The notes: generated from the letters alone by a model not told the origin. Shown: positions 22,513-58,558, counted from the first letter of the stretch. The stretch: DNA of 64,000 bases from Bacilli bacterium (GCA_900758495.1 CAAERO010000005.1:16189-80188); one strand, 5' to 3'. Numbers and translations: made by a program.

Positions 22513-22540
22513 ACAAAAAAAATTAGTCTTTAACTAATTT
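22513..22540 (-). terminator. rho-independent terminator overlapping the stop of the 22534 gene
   Basis: The minus strand reads AAATTAGTTAAAGACTAATTTTTTTT (7-bp stem, T-run). Confidence 0.5.
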
Positions 22541-23091
22541 AATTGTTCTATTGCTGATATTCTAACTTTTCCATAATATGATTTCCCAATAGCATCATTT
22601 TCGGCTGTTAAATTTAACCATGTACGTAATTCAAAATTCTGAGTAGTATTACCTGCTATCGAATATGTTCCAAGTTTATTACTACTACTAGCTAAACTAC
22701 CACTTGCTACTGATGTTCCATCCTTCTTCAAGTCATAAGATAAATAATTATAAGCTACTAAAGAACATCCATTACATGATGCTGTATCATCATCTAAGTA
22801 AACATCATAGTTAATTGTTCTTGTTCCTGTATTCTTTAGTGAAAAATTATATGGGGTAGATGCTAGACCATCACTATCTTCTTGAGGAATTGCATTTGTT
22901 ACACTAATACTTGATGTTCCTTCTACATAATTTAGTTGTAAATCTTTTGCTACTAATGTAACATTTTGCGTTCCATTTAACGTCATTTGTGAAAGTGCAA
23001 AACTAATACCTGCTATTAAAAAAATCAATATAAATAGACCAACAATTAGTAGTATGTTTTTACTATTATTAACTTTTATACTATCTTTCAT
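22534..23091 (-). CDS. secreted or anchored protein, divergent member of the SipW-client-like family found at 39386-43487
   Basis: It has an N-terminal TM/signal ending AGISFALSQ (compare VGISFAAFSYS). It shares blocks with that family: L.Y.EGT..I.VTNAIP..D..G, Y.F.L.N, INY, and a C-terminal FELRTWL...YYGKVRISA. Confidence 0.5.
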   Translation of the reverse strand: MKDSIKVNNSKNILLIVGLFILIFLIAGISFALSQMTLNGTQNVTLVAKDLQLNYVEGTSSISVTNAIPQEDSDGLASTPYNFSLKNTGTRTINYDVYLDDDTASCNGCSLVAYNYLSYDLKKDGTSVASGSLASSSNKLGTYSIAGNTTQNFELRTWLNLTAENDAIGKSYYGKVRISAIEQLN

Positions 23092-34932: not shown

Positions 34933-35229
34933 CTACTCTTCTTCTGGTATTCTAAGAATATATTCTCCATCTTTTGAATAATAATACTTTTCTCTTGCAT
35001 ACCTTGCTACATAATCTGCATCTTGTAATTTTAAAACATCAGCCTTTAGCTCATCTTCTTTGTCCTTTAAACTAGCAAGTTCTTTAGTAAGTTCTTTCTT
35101 TTCTTTATATTTACTATAGATACTAACCCAGTATTTCCCTACAGTATAGGTTGTGAACACTATCATGGCAAGAGAAAAAACACATAGAAAAAAGGGACCA
35201 ATTTTCTTTTTTTTCTTATTTTTAGCCAT
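34933..35229 (-). CDS. divIC: septum formation initiator (FtsB/DivIC family)
   Basis: Lys-rich N-terminus, single TM, coiled coil and ..DADYVARYAREKYYYSKDGEYI. It follows yabP-yabQ, as in Bacillus. Confidence 0.7.
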   Translation of the reverse strand: MAKNKKKKKIGPFFLCVFSLAMIVFTTYTVGKYWVSIYSKYKEKKELTKELASLKDKEDELKADVLKLQDADYVARYAREKYYYSKDGEYILRIPEEE

Positions 35230-35284
35230 AATATCACCCACTTTTCCTGATATTATTATAGACTTTTTTTCTAAGTTTTGCAAA

Positions 35285-35578
35285 TTAACTAGTATTTTTT
35301 TTTAATCTTGACATTATTCTCTGTATTTTTCTATAAGTAAGTATATATCCTAAAAAAATTAACAAATAAAAAAGGGGATGAATCATTGCATTATTTATCT
35401 TTTTCATTGATATAAAATATAGTAATGCCATATCTAGGGAGAAAAGAATGTTACCAATTATTTTAATTGTTTTTCTACTTTCAAATAGAAAGGTATAGTT
35501 AAGAGTAATAAGAAGCGATAATAATATTCCGTACAGTCCTGAAAAAAAAATGGAGATAAGTTGTATTTTTAAACTCAT
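35285..35578 (-). CDS. yabQ: spore cortex biosynthesis protein YabQ-like small membrane protein
   Basis: A 97-aa, 3-TM protein translationally abutting yabP. The call rests on position and size. Confidence 0.6.
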   Translation of the reverse strand: MSLKIQLISIFFSGLYGILLSLLITLNYTFLFESRKTIKIIGNILFSLDMALLYFISMKKINNAMIHPLFYLLIFLGYILTYRKIQRIMSRLKKNTS

Positions 35579-35874
35579 TATTTAAACAATCTTTGAAAGA
35601 TACTATTTCCTTCTTTATCTTTCTTTGAAGTATCATCTATATAAGTAAAACCATTAACATAACCTTTAATTGATACATTTCCTGATATTGTGTCTAATTT
35701 TATAAGTTCTAAACCATCACCTTTTACTACTAAAAAACCCATAGTAGTTTCTATTAAGAATTCTTCCTTATCAAAGTTTTCTATTTTTTTAACTCCTGTT
35801 ATTAAAAGATTTTTTCTTTCTGTTAAAGTTATGCTATGATTATAGTTACTTATTATTGTCTCTTTAGTTTCCAT
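35578..35874 (-). CDS. yabP: sporulation protein YabP
   Basis: HSITLTERKNLLITGVKKIENFDKEEFLIETTMGFLVVKGDGLELIKLD matches the YabP/YqfC family pattern. Confidence 0.8.
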   Translation of the reverse strand: METKETIISNYNHSITLTERKNLLITGVKKIENFDKEEFLIETTMGFLVVKGDGLELIKLDTISGNVSIKGYVNGFTYIDDTSKKDKEGNSIFQRLFK

Positions 35875-35916
35875 CTATTCTCCTCCTAGTTATAGAGTAT
35901 GAATTAGAAAATATTA

Positions 35917-35947
35917 AAAGAACAAAAAAAGAAGAACTAATCTTCCT
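35917..35947 (-). terminator. probable rho-independent terminator after spoVG
   Basis: The minus strand reads AGGAAGATTAGTTCTTCTTTTTTTG. Confidence 0.45.
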
Positions 35948-35957
35948 ATAGTAATTA

Positions 35958-36224
35958 TTATTCAGAATCCAAAGTATTTTGGTAAGCTTCTAGAATTTTA
36001 TCTTGAAACATTGCTCTTACTTCAGGATTGATTGGATGAGCTATATCACGATATCCACCAGTAGGAGTCTTTCTGCTTGGCATTGCAATAAATAAGCCAT
36101 TTTCTCCTTCAATGATTCTGATATCATGAACTGCAAAACTATCATCCAATAAGACAGATGCAATTCCTCTCATACGAGAACCTTCTTTGTCAACTTTTCG
36201 TACAGTGACTGATGTAATTTCCAT
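35958..36224 (-). CDS. spoVG: septation/sporulation regulator SpoVG
   Basis: [11 protein letters not shown]...[45 protein letters not shown] is the hallmark SpoVG sequence. Confidence 0.9.
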
Positions 36225-36323
36225 ATATCTTCCTCCTTTTAAAGCACTGACACTTTATACTTTAATTCTATCTTATCTCTTTTATAATTGCAAGAAGTTT
36301 ATAGGTACTTGACAGCAAACACG

Positions 36324-36542
36324 TCAACTGATTATTTCGACACTTTCTGTTATTAAATCACTATAACTAAACGACTTTATTTTATTTTCTTCTCCTTCTA
36401 ACCTAACTAAAAATATTGAAGGATAAAGTTCAATTATTTCTCCATTAAATTCTTCTATTTGATTTCGACTTCCATTAACTTTAAAATGTAAAATAGTTCC
36501 TTCTTTTTCTTTAATTTTATTTCTCATAGTATCTAAATTCAT
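36324..36542 (-). CDS. veg: Veg protein
   Basis: ..LYPSIFLVRLEGEENKIKSFSYSDLITESVEI parallels B. subtilis Veg (..[34 protein letters not shown]). The start overlaps the yabG stop (ATGA). Confidence 0.85.
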   Translation of the reverse strand: MNLDTMRNKIKEKEGTILHFKVNGSRNQIEEFNGEIIELYPSIFLVRLEGEENKIKSFSYSDLITESVEIIS

Positions 36543-37318
36543 CTTGGATACCCCACATACATAGTACCATTTGTGATAATTCCACCCATACCAGCACTTC
36601 CATAATGAGTTTTATCTATTAGATGTATCAAATCAATTGCTTTATTTACAGGAGATAATGCTACACAAGAAGCTACTATTGCTGGATCTAGGGCATGTAT
36701 GTTTATTCTTTTAGGACTTGAAGCAAAATTACTTCCAGCTTTTATTAATTCTTCATAGTTTGACTGACAAGCACCAGCTATTATTATTAATTTGTCTTGA
36801 TTTTTTTCATACATTCTAGCTTTTTTTATAGCATTAACAAAATTTTCAGAATTTTGATAATTTTCTATTTTGCTTTTATCTTTGGCATATTTTTTTAAAA
36901 AGTCATGTCCTGTTATTACTATTATATCTGGCTTATACTTTTCTAGGGTATCTATTATTACATTTTCTATTTCACTTTCCTTAACTTTTATTCCATAAGC
37001 TTCTAAATGCATATCTTTATAAAAGTTTATACACCTATCTAAATAAAATTTATCAGAATCAAACTGAACTATCTTACCTGGCAAGTAGAAGTATTCACTT
37101 CTATCTAATGATATCAAACTTTCTACTTTTAAAATATCTATCCGATCTGTTTCTTTCTTTACTGACACTTTATTTAAATCATCTAACTCGCTATCAGCAT
37201 AAAGTCTAACATCAACACCTCTTAAATAAGCTATATCTTCTTCTATATCGATTATTTGAAAAACTAAGTCGTTATTATAAGACTGCCTAGTTACATAGTC
37301 ACATAACTTAAAATTCAT
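36539..37318 (-). CDS. yabG: sporulation-specific protease YabG
   Basis: The ..PDIIVITGHD... and ..IIAGACQS.. blocks match, and the position between rsmA and veg is as in Bacillus. Confidence 0.75.
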   Translation of the reverse strand: MNFKLCDYVTRQSYNNDLVFQIIDIEEDIAYLRGVDVRLYADSELDDLNKVSVKKETDRIDILKVESLISLDRSEYFYLPGKIVQFDSDKFYLDRCINFYKDMHLEAYGIKVKESEIENVIIDTLEKYKPDIIVITGHDFLKKYAKDKSKIENYQNSENFVNAIKKARMYEKNQDKLIIIAGACQSNYEELIKAGSNFASSPKRINIHALDPAIVASCVALSPVNKAIDLIHLIDKTHYGSAGMGGIITNGTMYVGYPR

Positions 37319-37356
37319 CTAATCACCCAGTTAATTTTATGCAAGAACAATTTAAT

Positions 37357-38260: not shown

Positions 38261-38695
38261 TTATTTTTTCAACTCTTCTTTAACTGGTTTTATCATAAAT
38301 AGTAAGTTAGAAACTGATAAACCATATAACATTATTTTCATATAAGATATAAAAGTATTAAAATAGTTAAAATCTATTCCATAACCATATTTTTCATTGA
38401 GAACCATATTTTTATCAGCAAATGCTCTATATCCTACTACTATTATTGTAGTAAAAATTATACAGGATGTTAAGTTATAGAATATGTTATTATTAACACC
38501 TTCTTGCTTAAATACAAGGTTAATTATAAATAATAAGAAAATAATTAGAAAGGGAATAAATTCTGGCATTAGGGTGATAAAACTTTTTTCTAGTCTAACA
38601 TTCATTCTTACCATTATAAATAGGGTAATTGCAAATGCACCTAATAATAAGATATATTTCAATACTACAAATATAATATTTAATATTTTCTTCAT
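38261..38695 (-). CDS. small 4-TM membrane protein, last gene of the sipW operon
   Basis: Its ATG lies 1 nt after the upstream stop (TAATATG). It is hydrophobic, and no family was recognised. Confidence 0.5.
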   Translation of the reverse strand: MKKILNIIFVVLKYILLLGAFAITLFIMVRMNVRLEKSFITLMPEFIPFLIIFLLFIINLVFKQEGVNNNIFYNLTSCIIFTTIIVVGYRAFADKNMVLNEKYGYGIDFNYFNTFISYMKIMLYGLSVSNLLFMIKPVKEELKK

Positions 38696-38696
38696 A

Positions 38697-39386
38697 TTAA
38701 CCTCCCATTACTTCGTTATAATACCAATTTGAAAGTTCTACTAGAAGATCTAAAGTATTTTGATAATTGGTATTAATTGAGTTATAACTATCTTTAGCTA
38801 AGAAGAAAATACTTGATTTACTTATGTCATTCGTAAAATAATAATTATCAGCACTTTCTAAGTTTGAAGTAATATAACTATTACTTGATAATTGTTCATT
38901 AATAGTTGTTTTGATAAATGGTCTTATAGCTTTTAAACTTTCTATATTGAAGCTATTACTTTCATCAATAAATGCATTTAATTGCATTACAACACAATCA
39001 TTTAAAATATTATTTTGATAAAATTTTCCTAATTTATAAACATCACTTAACTCTATACTTTGTTTACTAGCTAATTCTTTATATTCATTACTTTCAAATA
39101 CTTTAACACAATTATTTAATTTTATTTGAATACTATTCATATCATATACATTATTTTTTCCTTGATACGAATTTTGTTGGTATGAATTTATATTAGTCTT
39201 TATCTTATCTAATTTCTCTTGTGTTTTTTGTGCATTTGCAATTACTTCACTACTAACATCAACTTTTGTACTTAATTCTCTGTAGTGGTAGAAATTTATA
39301 AATAATAAGAAAAAAGAAAAACCAAATACTAAACCAGTCAAGGCATAAGCAAATATATTTATATATTCTAATAACATTTTTTTCAT
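38697..39386 (-). CDS. hypothetical single-pass membrane protein (229 aa)
   Basis: One N-terminal TM followed by a helical ectodomain. Its start overlaps the upstream stop (TAATG). Confidence 0.5.
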   Translation of the reverse strand: MKKMLLEYINIFAYALTGLVFGFSFFLLFINFYHYRELSTKVDVSSEVIANAQKTQEKLDKIKTNINSYQQNSYQGKNNVYDMNSIQIKLNNCVKVFESNEYKELASKQSIELSDVYKLGKFYQNNILNDCVVMQLNAFIDESNSFNIESLKAIRPFIKTTINEQLSSNSYITSNLESADNYYFTNDISKSSIFFLAKDSYNSINTNYQNTLDLLVELSNWYYNEVMGG

Positions 39387-39901
39387 TAATTATTCTCCTT
39401 TACTATTATGTTGACTTTATAAGCATAGTTTTTATTTTCCCAAGTACCCTTTTCTAATGAATCTGGTATATATACTTTAAGTTCATAATTATTAATTTTT
39501 CCAGCCATAATGTATCTTTCATCTAAAATATTATCTTTTAACTTTGCTAAGTTTCCTTTTTTTATAATTTTACCATTAAGCATTAATTCATAACTTAATT
39601 GACTTTTAGAAAGCTTGTCTTCTGTAATGTTAACTTCTTCAAAAACTACTTTATAAGAACTTTTAAAATCATTGACATTCTTGATACTAAATTTATAATT
39701 TGGAATAGATTGCGCTTCACTTTCAGTCGTTGGTACTAAATTTTCAGTTAATGCTACCTCGTCACTTTCTTTTTGTACTTGTAATGTGTTTATTTTTCCA
39801 ATATCACCATAGTAAAAGACTTTATACCAAAGAAATGATGTGCAAATTACAAAAGCAAAAAGAAGAATTCCTCCTAAAGTAAGAAATATTTTTTTTGTCA
39901 T
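39386..39901 (-). CDS. hypothetical N-terminally anchored beta-rich protein (171 aa), distant member of the SipW-client-like family
   Basis: One TM, then blocks YKFSIKN, LSYELMLNG and YELKVYIPD...YAYKVNIIV. These echo Y.FDF.V, (V/I)KVYL and YRLRMWV...Y.LKVNVYG of the paralogues. Its start overlaps the sipW stop (TAATG). Confidence 0.45.
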   Translation of the reverse strand: MTKKIFLTLGGILLFAFVICTSFLWYKVFYYGDIGKINTLQVQKESDEVALTENLVPTTESEAQSIPNYKFSIKNVNDFKSSYKVVFEEVNITEDKLSKSQLSYELMLNGKIIKKGNLAKLKDNILDERYIMAGKINNYELKVYIPDSLEKGTWENKNYAYKVNIIVKENN

Positions 39902-40650
39902 TACTTATATCTTCCCCTTTCTGTTTTTGCATTATTATCTATTTTTTTTGTTTTTTCTTTTGTTTTTGGTACTTCTTTACTTTTATTTTCTTTCTTATTA
40001 TTAGGATCATTTTTTATGGTCTTAATTATTTTAACTATATCTGCTCCAATAATTCCTACTGTTGGAACAATAATTAATAATATCCATCCTATTACACTAC
40101 TCAATATGTATTGTATATATCCAATCTTTGGTAAACGTATAAGAACTTTTCCATAAATAGTATCAAAAGTCTGACGAGAAGCATCTTCTGTATTATTAGC
40201 ATCTCCTTTTGTTGTAAATAAATACTTACCATCATCTGTTTTTTCTATTTTTCTAACTCTATGTGTAACGGTCACTCCCGAACTGCGATAATCTGTTGAA
40301 TTAAAAGTTATTACATCTCCAACTTTTATTTTTGAGGGATCCTTTACTCTCATTGTTACAATTACATCTAACACATTTATATTTGGTACCATACTGGGAC
40401 TTACTATTGTATAGGCAGACACCAATGGTGGTTTTGTGATACCCTTTTTTAAATTGTTTCGCTGATCTAAAAAGTTTATAATTATCAGTAAGAACACTAA
40501 AATCATTATTAGTAAAACTGAGTACATAATAATTGTAAATATATAGTGTGCTATTCTTTTCAATTTTTCAAATAAAGAAAGATTAGAAAAGGGTACTGCA
40601 ATAGCTATTTCATTATCATTCAAATTCATCACCCACTTATCATTCTCCAC
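39901..40650 (-). CDS. sipW: signal peptidase I, SipW (ER/archaeal) type
   Basis: Catalytic Ser box IVSPSMVP, His box VTHRV and TKGDANNTED. There is one TM before and one after the catalytic domain, plus a Lys-rich tail. Confidence 0.85.
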   Translation of the reverse strand: MENDKWVMNLNDNEIAIAVPFSNLSLFEKLKRIAHYIFTIIMYSVLLIMILVFLLIIINFLDQRNNLKKGITKPPLVSAYTIVSPSMVPNINVLDVIVTMRVKDPSKIKVGDVITFNSTDYRSSGVTVTHRVRKIEKTDDGKYLFTTKGDANNTEDASRQTFDTIYGKVLIRLPKIGYIQYILSSVIGWILLIIVPTVGIIGADIVKIIKTIKNDPNNKKENKSKEVPKTKEKTKKIDNNAKTERGRYK

Positions 40651-40693
40651 TATTATAAGTGTATCACATCTTTATTTTTTTTTAAATAGAAGT

Positions 40694-41329
40694 TTATTGT
40701 TTAGATTTAGCTTTGGCATTTGCATGAAGTGCCACTTGAACTGTAAATATTCTTTGGGTTGCATCAACTTTAGTATTTTCATCTACCCACATTCTTAAGC
40801 GATAATTATCAGTTTTGCTAGTATCAACTGTATTCTTATATAATAACATTGTTCCTTTTTCACTTCCAATATCTGTTAATGAAGTTAATGGTGTGAAATG
40901 TTTAGGTTTCATTACTTCTTCATATGTTCCGCCATTTTTCTTTTCTAAATATAATTTTACTTCATTATTTTTTAAAGTTGAATTCTCCTGCTTTTGTCCA
41001 GAAATTTCATATGTAATAGTTGCATTTCCTTGAATAGTTGATGTTACACTGAAGTCGAAATATTGATTGGTGGCAGACATTGTTTTTCCACTTTCATCTG
41101 TCATCGGCATTGCATTAGTAATTGTTATTCCGTTAGTGTCTTCAGTATAGTCTAGTGATATCCTTCCAGTAGTGATAGAGTTTGTTTTATCTCCTTTTTT
41201 TGTTACTGTTACTGATATAGCGGATATACCTATTATTAATAAGATTAATAATAATAAAATAATAAGTGTAAAATATAATTTCCCGTTTTTTTCCTCTTTT
41301 AGTTCTTCTTTTCTCTCTTTATTTTTCAT
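40694..41329 (-). CDS. SipW-client-like secreted protein, divergent paralogue 4
   Basis: Charged N-terminus, TM ending IGISAISVTV, then ITTGRISLDYTEDTNGITITNAMPMTDESGK, YFDFSV, ITY, VKLYL and YRLRMWVDEN. RBS AGGAG before the ATG at 41329. Confidence 0.55.
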   Translation of the reverse strand: MKNKERKEELKEEKNGKLYFTLIILLLLILLIIGISAISVTVTKKGDKTNSITTGRISLDYTEDTNGITITNAMPMTDESGKTMSATNQYFDFSVTSTIQGNATITYEISGQKQENSTLKNNEVKLYLEKKNGGTYEEVMKPKHFTPLTSLTDIGSEKGTMLLYKNTVDTSKTDNYRLRMWVDENTKVDATQRIFTVQVALHANAKAKSKQ

Positions 41330-41383
41330 ATTCAAGACACTCCTATTCTGTTTAAATTGTAGCATACTTTCATTTTGTGGTAA

Positions 41384-41411
41384 AGAAAAAAGTGTCAGAG
41401 ATTAGACACTT
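41384..41411 (-). terminator. rho-independent terminator after paralogue 1
   Basis: The minus strand reads AAGTGTC-TAATCTCT-GACACTT followed by TTTTTT. The same hairpin is repeated after paralogues 2 and 3. Confidence 0.7.
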
Positions 41412-41422
41412 AACTATGTTCA

Positions 41423-42025
41423 TTATTGAGCATTTGCTTTTCCATACACGTTAACTCTTAGCTTATACGTTTGCTTAGTACTTGTATTACTATATGTATC
41501 AGCAACCCACATTCTCAAACGATAACTAGTTGATATTGAAGATTTTGTGCTTCCTGATTTCAATATAAATTGACCACTTGGAGCTCCACTCGCTTCACTA
41601 GACGATGTTGTTGTTAAGTTTGATACTAATGTTGGTTCTAACACTACATTCTTATCATCTTCACTAGTTAAATATACTTTAATTCCAGAATTCAAAGCTG
41701 AACTTGCAGAATCTACTGATGCTGTTACAGCATAATTAATAGTTGCAGTACCTTGAACAGTTGTAGCTACTGTAAAATCAAAAGTATTATTAGTACCAGT
41801 TAATTTTTTTCCTGAATCATCGGTCATTGGTAAAGCATCTGTTAAATTAATACCATTCGTTGGTTCAGTATAACTCATTGTAATAGTACCTGTTGTAACA
41901 GTATTTACCTTTGTACCTGTTTTTGAATAAGTGAATGCTGCAAAGGAAATACCAACTAATGCTACTACTAAGATTGCAACTCCTAAGATGGAAACTAGAA
42001 TCTGTTTTGAATTACTTTCGCTCAT
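41423..42025 (-). CDS. SipW-client-like secreted protein, paralogue 1 (putative fibre/surface subunit)
   Basis: The signal peptide ..ILVSILGVAILVVALVGISFAAFTYSKTG resembles the G..FAAF SipW-dependent signal of TasA/CalY. The N-terminal ~75 aa and C-terminal YRLRMWV..YKLRVNVYG are conserved, and the middle is variable. AAGGAGG RBS. Confidence 0.65.
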   Translation of the reverse strand: MSESNSKQILVSILGVAILVVALVGISFAAFTYSKTGTKVNTVTTGTITMSYTEPTNGINLTDALPMTDDSGKKLTGTNNTFDFTVATTVQGTATINYAVTASVDSASSALNSGIKVYLTSEDDKNVVLEPTLVSNLTTTSSSEASGAPSGQFILKSGSTKSSISTSYRLRMWVADTYSNTSTKQTYKLRVNVYGKANAQ

Positions 42026-42048
42026 TTGTCTAACCTCCTTACAATATA

Positions 42049-42078
42049 AAGATATCACATATATCAGCCAATTAACAA
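42049..42078 (-). promoter_or_regulatory. putative sigma-A promoter of paralogue 1 (TTGTTA, N18 including an extended TG, then TATCTT)
   Basis: The minus strand reads cacTTGTTAattggctgatatatgTGaTATCTTtatattgtAAGGAGG. The same arrangement occurs upstream of paralogue 2. Confidence 0.4.
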
Positions 42079-42091
42079 GTGATTTTTTTGT

Positions 42092-42121
42092 AAAAAAAAA
42101 AGTGTCAATAATTAGACACTT
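42092..42121 (-). terminator. rho-independent terminator after paralogue 2
   Basis: The minus strand reads AAGTGTC-TAATTATT-GACACTT followed by a T-run of 10. Confidence 0.7.
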
Positions 42122-42131
42122 TTATACATCA

Positions 42132-42737
42132 TTATTTTGCAACTGCTTGTCCATAAACATTTACTTTTAAGATATATTTTTGGCTTGTAGCTGGGACTGT
42201 ATAATCGTCAGCAACCCACATTCTTAGACGATAATTATCAGTATGAGTTCCAGTACCATAAGTACCAGTTTTTAATACATATTGATCAGCTGGTGCTCCT
42301 GCTGCATTGCCCGCAACAGTTTTAGTTAAAGCAGTAACCTTAGTAGGTGCAAGAATTTGTGCATCTTCTTGATCTGTTAGATATACTTTAACTCCACCAT
42401 CAGCAATTGTACATTCATCACCTTTTACAGCTGTTACAACATAGTTAATAGTTGTACTACCACTAACTGTTGCAGATACTGTAAAATCAAAAGTATTATT
42501 AGCCCCTGTTAGTGCCTTACCAGCTGTATCAGTTATAGGAAGAGCATCTGTTAAATTAATACCATTTGTTGGTTCAGTATAACTCATTGTAATAGTACCT
42601 GTTGTAATAGTATTTGCTACATTACCAGTCTTTGAATAACTAAATGCAGCAAATGAAATTCCTACCACAGCTACTATTAAAATTGCAACTCCTAAAATTG
42701 ATACAAGAACTTGCTTTGATGAATTGCTATTGTTCAT
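42132..42737 (-). CDS. SipW-client-like secreted protein, paralogue 2
   Basis: Signal ..VLVSILGVAILIVAVVGISFAAFSYSKTG. TGTITMSYTEPTNGINLTDALPITD is identical or near-identical to paralogues 1 and 3. C-terminal YRLRMWVADDY..YILKVNVYG. Confidence 0.65.
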   Translation of the reverse strand: MNNSNSSKQVLVSILGVAILIVAVVGISFAAFSYSKTGNVANTITTGTITMSYTEPTNGINLTDALPITDTAGKALTGANNTFDFTVSATVSGSTTINYVVTAVKGDECTIADGGVKVYLTDQEDAQILAPTKVTALTKTVAGNAAGAPADQYVLKTGTYGTGTHTDNYRLRMWVADDYTVPATSQKYILKVNVYGQAVAK

Positions 42738-42762
42738 CTTTGTCTAACCTCCTTACAATATA

Positions 42763-42792
42763 AAGATATCACAAAGATATAATATTTAACAA
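42763..42792 (-). promoter_or_regulatory. putative sigma-A promoter of paralogue 2
   Basis: The minus strand reads TTGTTA (42792-42787), an 18-nt spacer containing TG, then TATCTT (42768-42763). Confidence 0.4.
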
Positions 42793-42811
42793 GTATTTTT
42801 TTCAAAACAAA

Positions 42812-42837
42812 GAAAAAGTGTCAGAGATTAGACACTT
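42812..42837 (-). terminator. rho-independent terminator after paralogue 3
   Basis: The minus strand reads AAGTGTC-TAATCTCT-GACACTT followed by TTTTC. Confidence 0.65.
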
Positions 42838-42848
42838 TAATAGCTAAA

Positions 42849-43487
42849 CTATTGAGCTTTAGCAGCACCATAAACATTAACTTTTAAGATATACTTATGT
42901 TGAGCAGCAAATTCTGTAGTGTTAGCACCACCAGCTTGTTGACCATAATTTGCATCTACCCACATTCTTAAACGATAATTATCTGTTCCTGTAGCAGTAT
43001 AGTTTCCTGTTTTAAGAATATATTGATCAGCTGGTGCTCCAGCATCATTTCCAGCAACAGTTTTATTTAATTGAGATACTAGTTTAGGTGCAAATACAGC
43101 AGTTTCAGTTTCTCCACTTGTTGCTGTTAAGTAAACCTTAACTCCTGTATCTGGAAGATCACTAGCAGCATCTTTTACAGCACTAATTACATAGTTAATG
43201 TTAGTATCACCAGCAATAGTAGCTCCTACTGTAAAATCAAAAGTTTTTCCATCACCTTTTAATGCTTTACCAGCATCATCTGTGATAGGAAGTGCATCTG
43301 TTAAACTGATACCATTTGTTGGTTCAGTATAAGTCATTGTAATAGTACCAGTTGTAATAGTATTTGATACTTCACCAGTTTTTGAATAACTAAATGCAGC
43401 GAATGAAATACCTACTACAGCTACTACTAGAATTGCAACTCCTAGTACAGATAATAGAATCTGCTTTGATGAATTGTTATTGTTCAT
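42849..43487 (-). CDS. SipW-client-like secreted protein, paralogue 3
   Basis: Signal ..ILLSVLGVAILVVAVVGISFAAFSYSKTG, the same conserved N- and C-terminal blocks, and a longer variable middle. Confidence 0.65.
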   Translation of the reverse strand: MNNNNSSKQILLSVLGVAILVVAVVGISFAAFSYSKTGEVSNTITTGTITMTYTEPTNGISLTDALPITDDAGKALKGDGKTFDFTVGATIAGDTNINYVISAVKDAASDLPDTGVKVYLTATSGETETAVFAPKLVSQLNKTVAGNDAGAPADQYILKTGNYTATGTDNYRLRMWVDANYGQQAGGANTTEFAAQHKYILKVNVYGAAKAQ

Positions 43488-43513
43488 CTTTGTCTAACCT
43501 CCTTTACAATACA

Positions 43514-43542
43514 AATATAACACAGTTAGCAAGGCAAGGCAA
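43514..43542 (-). promoter_or_regulatory. putative sigma-A promoter of paralogue 3 (TTGCCT, N17 with TG, then TATATT)
   Basis: The minus strand reads TTGCCTtgccttgctaacTGtgtTATATTtgtattgtaAAGGAGG. Confidence 0.35.
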
Positions 43543-43559
43543 GATGTATTTTGTATTTT

Positions 43560-44315
43560 TTAGTGTAGTTTTGTAAATAAAGACAGGGCATTTTTAGTTG
43601 TTTCATTTTCAATAATATTTGTATCTAGATTTAATTCAGTAGCTATAAATCTAGCTATTATCGGTATATTTTTAGAGGTATTTATTTCTCCCCTATATGG
43701 AACTGGAGAAAGATAGGGGCTATCTGTTTCTAAAACTATATTTTCTAGGCTTAGCTGTTTTATTGTATCCTTTAAATGGCAATTTTTAAATGTTATAATT
43801 CCACCAATTCCAAGTAAATATCCCATTTTTATATATTGACAAGCAGTTTCATAACTTCCACTAAAACAATGAATAATTCCTTTTACTTTATATTTTTTTA
43901 AAATAGTTATAGTATCGTTCGTAGCTTCTCTTGTATGAATAACTACTGGCAAATTATATTTTTCTGCTAAAGCTAATTGTTTTTCAAATAATTCCTTTTG
44001 TTTTTCCTTATTTTCAGTAGAATAATAATAATCTAAACCTATTTCACCAATTCCTACTATTTTATTAATTAGTATTAAACTTTCTATTTTTTGTAGATCT
44101 GTATCTATAATTTTATTTGCTTCTTCTGGATGATATCCAATTGTAGCATAAACAGATGGAAAATTATTAATTATTTCTATTGTCTCATCTAAATCTTCTT
44201 TAGTGCAACCAGAAATAATAGTTTTTTCTACTCCTGCTTTTATATTTTCTTCTACTACATTTGAAATATTATCATAATCATTTTTACTTAAATGACAGTG
44301 TGTATCTATAAACAT
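43560..44315 (-). CDS. tatD: TatD-family metal-dependent DNase/hydrolase (YabD)
   Basis: MFIDTHCHL N-terminal His motif, GEIGLDYY and ETDSPYL. Confidence 0.9.
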   Translation of the reverse strand: MFIDTHCHLSKNDYDNISNVVEENIKAGVEKTIISGCTKEDLDETIEIINNFPSVYATIGYHPEEANKIIDTDLQKIESLILINKIVGIGEIGLDYYYSTENKEKQKELFEKQLALAEKYNLPVVIHTREATNDTITILKKYKVKGIIHCFSGSYETACQYIKMGYLLGIGGIITFKNCHLKDTIKQLSLENIVLETDSPYLSPVPYRGEINTSKNIPIIARFIATELNLDTNIIENETTKNALSLFTKLH

Positions 44316-44368: not shown

Positions 44369-44554
44369 CTACCTATTTAGCAAACTATTCTTATTTTTCT
44401 TTTTATAAATGTAAATTCTTATAAAATAAACAGTCAAAAATATTGCATACGATATGTCTAAAATGTTACGTTCATCAATTGCAGTAATTACAATACCAAT
44501 ATACAGCAATATAAAGGCCAAATGACATATTCCAACGCCTTTTGATTCATCCAT
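44369..44554 (-). CDS. possible small 2-TM membrane protein (61 aa)
   Basis: Only an ORF with two hydrophobic segments. No RBS was checked convincingly. Confidence 0.3.
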   Translation of the reverse strand: MDESKGVGICHLAFILLYIGIVITAIDERNILDISYAIFLTVYFIRIYIYKKKNKNSLLNR

Positions 44555-46402: not shown

Positions 46403-46948
46403 TTACTCTTCAAGACATTTTTCTAAAAATTGGGCGATAATTTGTGAAATATGAATTTGTTCTTCACTAAATCTTTTACCAGTGTGTATATCTATTATTA
46501 AAACTAATCCAACGACTTCGCCGTCGGATAATATAGGGCATACTAAATAATCAAATATTTTATCTAAATATTCATCGGAGTTAATTATGTCATTATATGA
46601 AATACTATATTTAATAACTTTTTCATTATTGAGTAAAATATTTTCTAAGTTACTTGAAATACTTCTATCAATAAATTCTTTTTTCAAGGCGCCGCTTCCA
46701 CTAATGATGTTATCGCGATCTGCTATAAAAATATTACTTTTTATAGTACTAGCTATAGTATCGATTAAACTTTGAGATATTTCCTTCAAATCTGATGCAG
46801 AAGTGAACTTTTTTAAGATTATTTCTTCTTCGTTGGTGTAAATTTCTAATGATTCGCCATCTCTAATGCGTAATGTTTTTCTAATTTCTTTTGGCAATAC
46901 TATTCTCCCCAAATCATCAATTCTTCTTACTACGCCTGTTGATTTCAT
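46403..46948 (-). CDS. spoVT: stage V sporulation protein T (AbrB-type N-domain + GAF-like C-domain)
   Basis: The MKSTGVVRRIDDLGRIVLPKEIRKTLRIRDGESLEIY swapped-hairpin AbrB domain is followed by ~125 aa. Its size and its position after mfd match SpoVT. Confidence 0.8.
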   Translation of the reverse strand: MKSTGVVRRIDDLGRIVLPKEIRKTLRIRDGESLEIYTNEEEIILKKFTSASDLKEISQSLIDTIASTIKSNIFIADRDNIISGSGALKKEFIDRSISSNLENILLNNEKVIKYSISYNDIINSDEYLDKIFDYLVCPILSDGEVVGLVLIIDIHTGKRFSEEQIHISQIIAQFLEKCLEE

Positions 46949-47083
46949 AAAATGCTCCCTTCTTTCTAGCAATATTTTTCCCAAGTTTATTTATTTTATA
47001 CCATTAAAAAACCTTTATATTATTATTATATACAGGTGCTATTGCTTTTTTGTGTGGTAATTATTTCCAAAATAAAAGCACCT

Positions 47084-58309: not shown

Positions 58310-58342
58310 ATAATATAATCTCCATTTTTTTACAAAATAAAA

Positions 58343-58416
58343 GTGCACATAAATGAATTATGTTAAGGCTGCTATGTTTCCATCCTGACCTATTTCCATA
58401 AACATCTATTGCACAT
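58343..58416 (-). ncRNA. ffs: small (4.5S-type, ~75 nt) signal recognition particle RNA
   Basis: The minus strand reads GTGCAATAGATGTTTATGGAAATAGGTCAGGATGGAAACATAGCAGCCTTAACATAATTCATTTATGTGCAC. The core GGTCAGG..GGAA..AGCAGCC parallels E. coli 4.5S domain IV (GGUCAGGUCCGGAAGGAAGCAGCC). The ends are complementary (GTGCA/TGCAC) and a T-run follows. An ffs gene next to tadA and dnaX is expected from Bacillus synteny. Confidence 0.55.
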
Positions 58417-58558
58417 ATATATAATAAATTAAGATTTGTAAAAAAGCAAGACTTTTCCTGTGAAAAATTAGAAAAAATGACAGTAATTTAAAATCAAGAA
58501 AAATGAAATAATTAGTGAAAATGATAGTAATTTGTTTTAATACAACCTTTTGTATTCA

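Follow-up and report, generated by a model that had tools for sequence, protein, structure and literature searches.

A 64,000-nucleotide stretch of DNA from a Bacilli bacterium (GCA_900758495.1, CAAERO010000005.1:16189-80188; below, the window, numbered from its first letter) carries, between tatD and rsmA, a locus in which a family of predicted secreted subunits is encoded together with a signal peptidase of the SipW type and three small membrane proteins (Table 1). Eight consecutive open reading frames (ORFs) on the minus strand fill positions 38261-43487 of the window: the three major subunits para1, para2 and para3, the divergent minor subunit para4, the peptidase (here sipW), and p171, p229 and p144. 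The flanking genes match TatD (TIGR00010, 265.7 bits) and RsmA (TIGR00755, 235.2 bits), with metG and yabG farther out. These translations and profile matches bear out the gene content, strand and position proposed in a first-pass annotation of the sequence, with one exception: the end coordinate it gave, 43560, falls on the final base of tatD, and the locus reaches no farther than 43487 and the leader of para1. Also as annotated, the small genes are tightly joined by TAATG- and TAAnATG-type junctions, with 1-nucleotide overlaps at 39901 and 39386 and a 1-nucleotide gap at 38696. The translational coupling of p171, p229 and p144 to sipW suggests that their products form a membrane complex. The first gene of the para4-sipW-p171-p229-p144 operon, para4, probably begins at the inner of its two candidate starts, and for para3 we take the ATG because the conserved leader and the AAGGAGG ribosome-binding site then align with those of para1 and para2. 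In-frame read-through from para1 into para2 would meet six stop codons in the linker.

Table 1. Genes and expression signals of the cassette, and an unlinked family member, in window coordinates.
Feature	Position	Strand	Basis or remark
para1 leader, promoter-like element and AAGGAGG ribosome-binding site	43488..43559	-	leader alignment
para1, major subunit, 212 aa	42849..43487	-	family hidden Markov model (HMM), E = 3e-79; 71% identity with para2
terminator-like hairpin and T-run directly 3' of para1	42815..42838	-	
para2 leader, near-identical	42738..42800	-	
para2, major subunit, 201 aa; protein used for structure models	42132..42737	-	ORF and AlphaFold2 (AF2)
terminator-like hairpin and T-run directly 3' of para2	42098..42123	-	
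para3 leader, near-identical	42026..42090	-	
para3, major subunit, 200 aa from the ATG at 42025	41423..42025	-	ORF list start is the GTG at 42058; 57% identity to para1
terminator-like hairpin and T-run directly 3' of para3	41390..41411	-	
para4, divergent single-copy minor subunit	40694..41329 (ORF as listed to 41365)	-	36% identity to para1
SipW/ER-archaeal-type signal peptidase I, 249 aa	39901..40650	-	TIGR02228
p171, membrane-anchored subunit homologue	39386..39901	-	hhalign; 17% identity to para1
p229, single-pass membrane protein	38697..39386	-	hydropathy, orthologue alignment
p144, small membrane protein with 3-4 transmembrane segments	38261..38695	-	hydropathy, orthologue alignment
fifth, unlinked family member, 185 aa, GISFA↓LSQ motif	22534..23091	-	family HMM, E = 8.5e-21

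The peptidase scores 92.6 bits against TIGR02228, the model for signal peptidase I of the archaeal and endoplasmic reticulum (ER) type (cut-off 51.85), whereas the bacterial LepB-type model TIGR02227 matches only at E = 0.57. The SPSM, THRV and TKGDANN (GDAN) boxes that had led to its annotation as a SipW/ER-type enzyme are readable in the translation and identify the Ser/His/Asp type, with no Ser/Lys dyad. Because its score against the Bacillus SipW equivalog is 75.7 bits, below the cut-off of 190, we describe it as SipW-like and not as an orthologue of Bacillus SipW. Hydropathy places transmembrane segments at residues 40-58 and 182-200, and the C-terminal tail is lysine-rich. This charged, low-complexity cytoplasmic tail after the second transmembrane segment comprises ~45 residues in the window (39901-40040) and varies greatly in length. 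The peptidase of one related locus (L075, 8740-9978) has 412 residues in all, with no domain detected in the tail; this protein and another longer orthologue (L064, 8738-9649) were considered as informative fusions and discarded, as their tails are of low complexity only.

In a scan that took one genome for each GTDB species and yielded 236 relatives, ~60 species-level genomes, all from uncultured gut Bacilli (RF39/UBA660, CAG-451 and Candidatus Onthousia), carry this cassette at an identical site. The gene order in essentially all loci long enough to judge is metG, tatD, 1-6 major subunit genes, para4, sipW, p171, p229, p144, rsmA, yabG, veg and spoVG. sipW is present in 62 loci, p171 in 61, p229 in 60 and p144 in 59. 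The three membrane genes are strictly co-conserved with sipW, and the linkage of sipW to the subunit family holds throughout the ~60 RF39-type loci. A metagenome scan with the p229 profile returned the same cassette only. In most loci para4 occurs once, just upstream of sipW; it is absent from the most divergent loci, where the four-gene core persists. The locus is thus an ancestral syntenic feature of the whole clade and not the insertion as which it had first been described; in view of the clade-wide synteny we rejected a horizontally acquired island. The mildly higher GC content of the subunit genes (0.32-0.34, vs ~0.25) more likely reflects their Ala/Gly/Thr-rich composition than transfer.

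All genome and protein sources found are metagenome-assembled or uncultured-organism records; those shown are all of uncultured gut Bacilli, 'Tenericutes' metagenome-assembled genomes, Clostridium sp. CAG:451 or Candidatus Onthousia, and their samples were of human, chicken, rabbit, mouse or rumen origin. CAG-451 belongs, in GTDB, to the order RF39, family UBA660 (PMC9302107). The literature searched held no earlier description of the subunit family, nor of a SipW system in a related member of the Bacilli.

para1 is predicted to consist of a Sec-type signal peptide ending GISFA↓AF (arrow, cleavage point) followed by a jelly-roll-like β-sandwich. The features by which the paralogues were first grouped, namely the signal end VGISFAAF(S/T)YSKTG, the near-identical N-terminal ~75 residues and the C-terminus YRLRMWV...VNVYG, are all present, and the N-terminal signature G[IV][ST][FY]A[AV]F...TG.I.M.YTE..NGI.I.NA.P..D..GK is family-wide. 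Residues 41-70 are among the best conserved of the family; the middle and C-terminal loops are variable. Neither the paralogues nor p171, p229 and p144 match any Pfam or NCBIfam model, and all relatives found are nameless or 'hypothetical protein' in their source, which agrees with the proposal that the paralogues form a family without a curated model.

The family extends far beyond this locus. Besides the four paralogues already listed, the window holds a fifth, overlooked member (Table 1), which lies between clpC and a gene for a DcuC-type transporter and is intermediate in sequence between the subunit and p171 types. For para2, 1,194 relatives were found, and an exhaustive profile search gives no fewer than 4,842 clusters (50% identity, E ≤ 1e-3; 2,136 at E ≤ 1e-10), many of them multidomain and adhesin-like. 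Among the 149 best superfamily representatives, 59 are at least 300 residues long and carry the ~200-residue module as their N-terminal part, followed by Big_2, Listeria-Bacteroides repeats (Flg_new), DUF6273, or lectin-like or unannotated sequence; the longest protein headed by the module has 1,743 residues. The motif [ST][FYW]A[AVI][FY] is found in 103 of the 149, including 49 of the 59 long ones. The neighbours of long members are housekeeping genes, and these members lack a sipW of their own; one genome (locus tags EGP98_) has a para4 orthologue and two long members. Cluster look-up gave neither names nor taxonomy for the long members.

Some variants carry a spacer of 60-260 residues, of low complexity or with Cys/Asp repeats, between an N-terminal segment that comprises the transmembrane stretch and the motif, and a core that begins at 'G.I.M.YTE', indicating that the N-terminal segment is separable from the core. 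Long spacers are seen in superfamily members P0387, P0334, P0327, P0320 and P0378. P0387 carries, in ~20 copies, a repeated Cys/Asp motif (CDRNCDDDGDGK-like) that is reminiscent of calcium-binding repeats.

The first-pass annotation had noticed that p171 echoes motifs of the paralogues. Comparison with the subunits by hhalign (probability 97.8%, E = 8.6e-13, 166 columns) shows that it is a true, anchored homologue. p171 has a single transmembrane segment and a conserved T-S-x-L-W-Y where the subunits have S-F-A↓A-F; the Trp at the -1 position should leave p171 in the membrane, with its sandwich, as read from the sequence, perhaps ~10-15 residues away from the bilayer. p171 thus differs from the subunits exactly at the cleavage position, which points to two classes, one cleaved and one anchored. 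In para4 the cytoplasmic N-terminus is rich in K and E, and the cleavage motif is degenerate, reading GISAISV here and S[MV]ATFT in most species.

The other two membrane proteins have no relatives in Pfam (E ≤ 1), NCBIfam or PDB profile searches. p229 has one transmembrane segment by hydropathy, as annotated, and a predicted extracytoplasmic domain of ~190 residues with two invariant cysteines. These are C93 and C131, present in all 24 aligned orthologues. The pair suggests a disulfide or a metal site in the surface protein of an anaerobe, and we propose that p229 is an assembly or peptidase accessory factor. p144, at 65% mean column identity, is the best conserved accessory gene; the four transmembrane segments annotated for its product hold only as three clear segments plus a probable fourth.

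Each of para1, para2 and para3 is preceded by a near-identical leader and followed by a hairpin that is likewise near-identical (Table 1). A promoter-like, sigma-70-like element lies at 43542-43514 in the para1 leader, a consensus match only. The pattern AGTGTC-N8-GACACTTTT occurs in the window at the three hairpin sites alone (0 expected by chance), and the same pattern follows subunit genes in 45 of 92 related loci. The stem sequence AGTGTC...GACACT is itself conserved between species whose subunits are only ~50-60% identical to those of the window. As the sequence of the stem is conserved, and not just its structure, the element exceeds the needs of a plain terminator. It may bind a protein or stabilise mRNA; another possible cause is concerted evolution of the cassettes. 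This layout would fit high, singly terminated expression of the major subunits with lower read-through into the minor subunit and assembly genes, in the manner of a pilin locus.

The signal-peptide ends of the subunits resemble that of TasA (G-I-S-F-A↓A-F and G-T-W-A↓A-F, respectively), a likeness noted from the start that is borne out by profile alignment. The TasA fibre structure, determined by cryo-electron microscopy, has a donor strand (residues 28-38), a linker (39-47) and a self-complementing strand (48-61) that is displaced in the fibre (PMC9674648). Using a TasA sequence identical to 8AUR, hhalign aligns the family profile at para2 residues 8-67 with TasA 5-62 at 28-29% identity (E = 0.002-0.007, probability 5-13%). 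The aligned stretch, which is confined to the N-terminus, spans the cleavage site (A27↓A28), the donor strand, the linker and the self-complementing strand, and the conserved family residues I44, G47, I49, E55, I60 and P67 fall on TasA F39, G42, L44, E50, V55 and P62. Among 60 members, seven give sub-threshold matches to the SipW-dependent signal model TIGR04088 (best E = 0.07) and two to the TasA model NF046066 (best E = 0.011, far below any cut-off).

An AF2 model of para2 from a 61-sequence alignment has a confident all-β core (predicted local distance difference test, pLDDT, ~90-97 for residues 60-200), while residues 6-24 form a hydrophobic helix and residues 26-45 are undocked, with pLDDT under 50. 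When mature para2 is modelled from Ala31, the first 15 residues are again unstructured and core pLDDT is ~90. Foldseek gives only weak matches for the full-length model, with AbpA, the 0406 thread and the TasA fibre among generic β-sandwiches. For the mature model, the TasA fibre 8AUR is the weak top match of 350,542 chains (probability 0.97, E = 2.1e-3, TM-score 0.37), and the top 30 include the 0406 thread, FimG, AbpA, the PapG pilin domain, a type-1 fimbrial subunit and BPSL1626. All these matches are weak. The earlier impression that the mature sequences are unlike TasA nevertheless went too far, given that their first ~35 residues can be aligned with TasA and that the TasA fibre is the best, if weak, structural match. 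Distant homology of the subunits to TasA is likely but unproven.

On this basis our preferred interpretation, which we consider evenly balanced between right and wrong, is that the locus encodes a SipW-processed, TasA-like donor-strand surface fibre, a new and very divergent branch of the TasA superfamily with a tethered paralogue and two new accessory proteins; the cleavage, the polymerisation and the roles of p171, p229 and p144 are the inferred parts. In such a system, para1-para3 would be expressed at a high level from individual cassettes, each with its promoter-like element, strong ribosome-binding site and hairpin, and would be exported by Sec. The co-encoded peptidase would cut after [ST]-[FY]-A to leave a mature N-terminus A-F-x, comparable to A28-F29 of TasA. 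The freed, unstructured N-terminal ~15 residues could then act as a donor strand that enters the sandwich of a neighbouring subunit and displaces its 'G.I.M.YTE' strand, as in TasA. We propose a TapA-like role for p171, by analogy: uncleaved and tethered, it would anchor or nucleate the polymer or serve as a chaperone. para4 would be a minor subunit, and p229, p144 and SipW may form a membrane complex that couples cleavage to assembly. The unlinked proteins in which the module is fused to Ig-like, repeat or lectin-like domains might use the peptidase in trans and be incorporated as adhesive tip or decorating subunits. Of the undescribed fibre suggested by the first-pass annotation, the linkage to SipW and the co-conservation of the accessory genes stand; such a fibre would probably be a divergent TasA-superfamily branch and not an unrelated new one.

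Several results weigh against this interpretation. The presumed donor strand, residues 31-40, is conserved only moderately apart from its A-F start (entropy 2.46). The four paralogues and 60 diverse members give no match to Peptidase_M73 (PF12389) at E up to 10, and a profile search of PDB sequences found nothing, TasA included. Once the signal peptide is removed, the similarity to TasA is marginal: 1-16 of 2,000 shuffled sequences reach the real score for TasA 28-75 (p ~0.001-0.008), a region chosen post hoc, and the shuffle test over the whole mature protein is not significant. No structural match of the mature model reaches E ≤ 0.001 and TM-scores are at most 0.39; carbohydrate-binding modules (CBM3, CBM32 and PA14) and viral and generic jelly-rolls score similarly in Foldseek.

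The matches to carbohydrate-binding modules also fit a reading in which the module is a SipW-dependent domain for export and surface retention that does not polymerise, the small paralogues being monomeric or forming a loosely packed coat or variable antigen layer and the long members being adhesins bound one-to-one to p171 or to wall polymers. A general display handle of this kind would head many unrelated passengers, as the module does (Big_2, Flg_new and DUF6273), and the variable middle and C-terminal loops and the copy number of 1-6 fit an exposed antigenic layer. However, retention leaves the conserved, undocked N-terminal extension and its alignment with the exchange region of TasA unexplained, and a protein that is cleaved and lacks a wall anchor would escape from the cell unless something bound it. 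Small subunits of ~170 residues in cassettes of their own, with minor subunits downstream, are moreover typical of fibre loci. We regard a non-polymerising module as rather unlikely.

The donor-strand reading can also be generalised. The N-terminal segment and jelly-roll might together form a strand-exchange handle, such that one SipW/p171/p229/p144 machine cleaves small subunits and large adhesins chromosome-wide and docks or co-polymerises them non-covalently on the anchored paralogue. We judge this extension to be unlikely. If true, it would describe a sortase-independent system for display and pilus formation, with previously unknown assembly factors, in an abundant uncultured lineage of the human gut. 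A sortase-assembled Gram-positive pilus does not fit the locus: the subunits end in ...VNVYGQAVAK, with no LPXTG and no C-terminal transmembrane segment, and no sortase is found among the cassette genes or the identified flanking genes. We rejected the argument that the locus replaces sortase display in a clade without sortases (PMC10868615), as the published statement covers RFN20 and ML615J-28 and CAG-451 belongs to RF39/UBA660.

Alternatively, the hydrophobic N-terminus could be an uncleaved signal anchor, making the paralogues type-II surface proteins and the SipW-type enzyme a general signal peptidase that is nearby by chance. Residues 6-24 form one long helix in the AF2 model, the -1/-3 pattern of para4 in the window is poor, and p171 and the spacer variants appear to be uncleaved. 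Against this, small residues at -3 and -1 ([ST]-x-A) followed by A/V-F/Y are kept in hundreds of divergent members, in a pattern that mirrors the experimentally cleaved site of TasA, and sipW is coupled to p171, p229 and p144 and linked to the subunits in every locus. An uncleaved anchor is, in our view, quite improbable.

We give equally little credence to the idea that the proteins are components of the spore surface (coat, exosporium or appendage) rather than vegetative fibres, an idea that would be compatible with polymerisation. In its favour, yabG, spoVG and spoVT are neighbours of the locus in the yab region, and spoIIGA and sigE occur on related contigs. TasA itself was initially reported as a protein associated with spores (PMC9674648), and predictions for RF39 cover both species that sporulate and species that do not (PMC10868615). 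This neighbourhood is, however, ancestral housekeeping synteny of the Bacillota, and metG, tatD and rsmA are not sporulation genes; the leader elements are sigma-70-like, which is weak evidence, and the cassette proteins match no coat or exosporium family in Pfam or NCBIfam. We rejected a type IV pilin, as the subunits match Pilin_N and PilA4 in Pfam only at chance level (E = 0.05-0.5), have no G/A-↓-hydrophobic leader motif, carry their conserved motif after the hydrophobic segment instead, and have no prepilin peptidase within the cassette.

Beyond the cassette, this low-GC (~25%) lineage of small genomes keeps yabG, spoVG, veg, yabP/yabQ-like ORFs and spoVT (35000-37320 and 46403-46984 in the window), and spoIIGA-sigE occurs in a related contig (L077, 4728-6115). 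Endospore formation may therefore be possible, in line with the prediction for part of RF39 cited above. A hydrophobic 61-residue ORF on the minus strand between metG and tatD (44369-44554) may not be a gene. The sole Rfam match in the window is a bacterial small signal recognition particle RNA (RF00169, 55.5 bits; 58329-58425, minus strand).

Bacteria of the RF39 order occur widely in the guts of humans and animals, and we found no account in the literature of how they build their surface or attach. The locus is conserved in the ~60 recovered loci that span it, occupies a housekeeping position and is, to judge from its sequence, apparently set up for high expression. If the donor-strand model is true, the range of TasA-type fibres extends beyond biofilm-forming soil Bacilli and extremophilic archaea to include a major lineage of the gut, p229 and p144 join an assembly machinery that is poorly understood even for TasA, and thousands of surface proteins that gut metagenomes list as 'hypothetical' become open to annotation. 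Should the model fail, the family would still be a large class of surface proteins linked to SipW, uncharacterised and worth a curated model of its own.

The closest known system is of the kind encoded by tapA-sipW-tasA of Bacillus subtilis (8AUR and 5OF1). Both have a SipW-type peptidase in the operon, a signal end x-[ST]-[WFY]-A↓A-F and a β-sandwich or jelly-roll-like core, the first ~35 mature residues can be aligned, and each has an accessory protein proposed as anchor or nucleator, TapA there and p171 here. By contrast, the present subunits have no significant family match and a core ~60 residues shorter than that of TasA, p229 and p144 are without counterpart in B. subtilis, up to 6 major subunit genes stand in tandem, and the module heads large multidomain proteins. 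The sipW-bsaABC operon of Clostridium perfringens, which we compare by description, likewise combines sipW with several secreted paralogues in a member of the Bacillota. There SipW is required for export and polymerisation of the ~23-kDa subunit BsaA, with no sortase involved (PMC7395162). Unlike the gut cassette, the bsa operon has a two-component regulator and is without p229- or p144-like genes.

The wider TasA superfamily of archaea and bacteria (AbpA bundling pili, AbpX, Tafi, Saci_0406 threads and cannulae) shares the cluster logic of our locus. Its clusters combine major with minor subunits and add a TIGR02228 peptidase, an anchor and accessory membrane proteins (bioRxiv 10.64898/2026.01.04.697558). 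Cleavage of the signal peptide frees an N-terminal donor strand, and kinship within the superfamily is seen only by the most sensitive methods. The same co-location is found here, with a TIGR02228 peptidase, para4 as minor paralogue, p171 as anchored one, and linkage in ~60 loci. The differences are that the present peptidase has two transmembrane segments, as against ten reported at AbpX-type loci; that p229 and p144, neither of which matches DUF5305 (no Pfam match at E ≤ 1), take the place of the DUF5305 accessory protein; that there is no SLH or LPXTG anchor; and that the system resides in host-associated RF39 Bacilli. With the type 1 and P pili of the Gram-negative chaperone-usher pathway, the subunits would share the proposed mechanism only, an N-terminal extension that completes the sandwich of a neighbour, along with weak fold matches; the organism is monoderm and has neither a periplasmic chaperone nor an outer-membrane usher, and the two sets of sequences are unrelated. 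The type of system, a dedicated ER-type signal peptidase with β-sandwich fibre subunits, is known, and what is new is the subunit family, the anchored paralogue in the position of TapA, the proteins p229 and p144, the reuse of the module on adhesin-like proteins and the host lineage.

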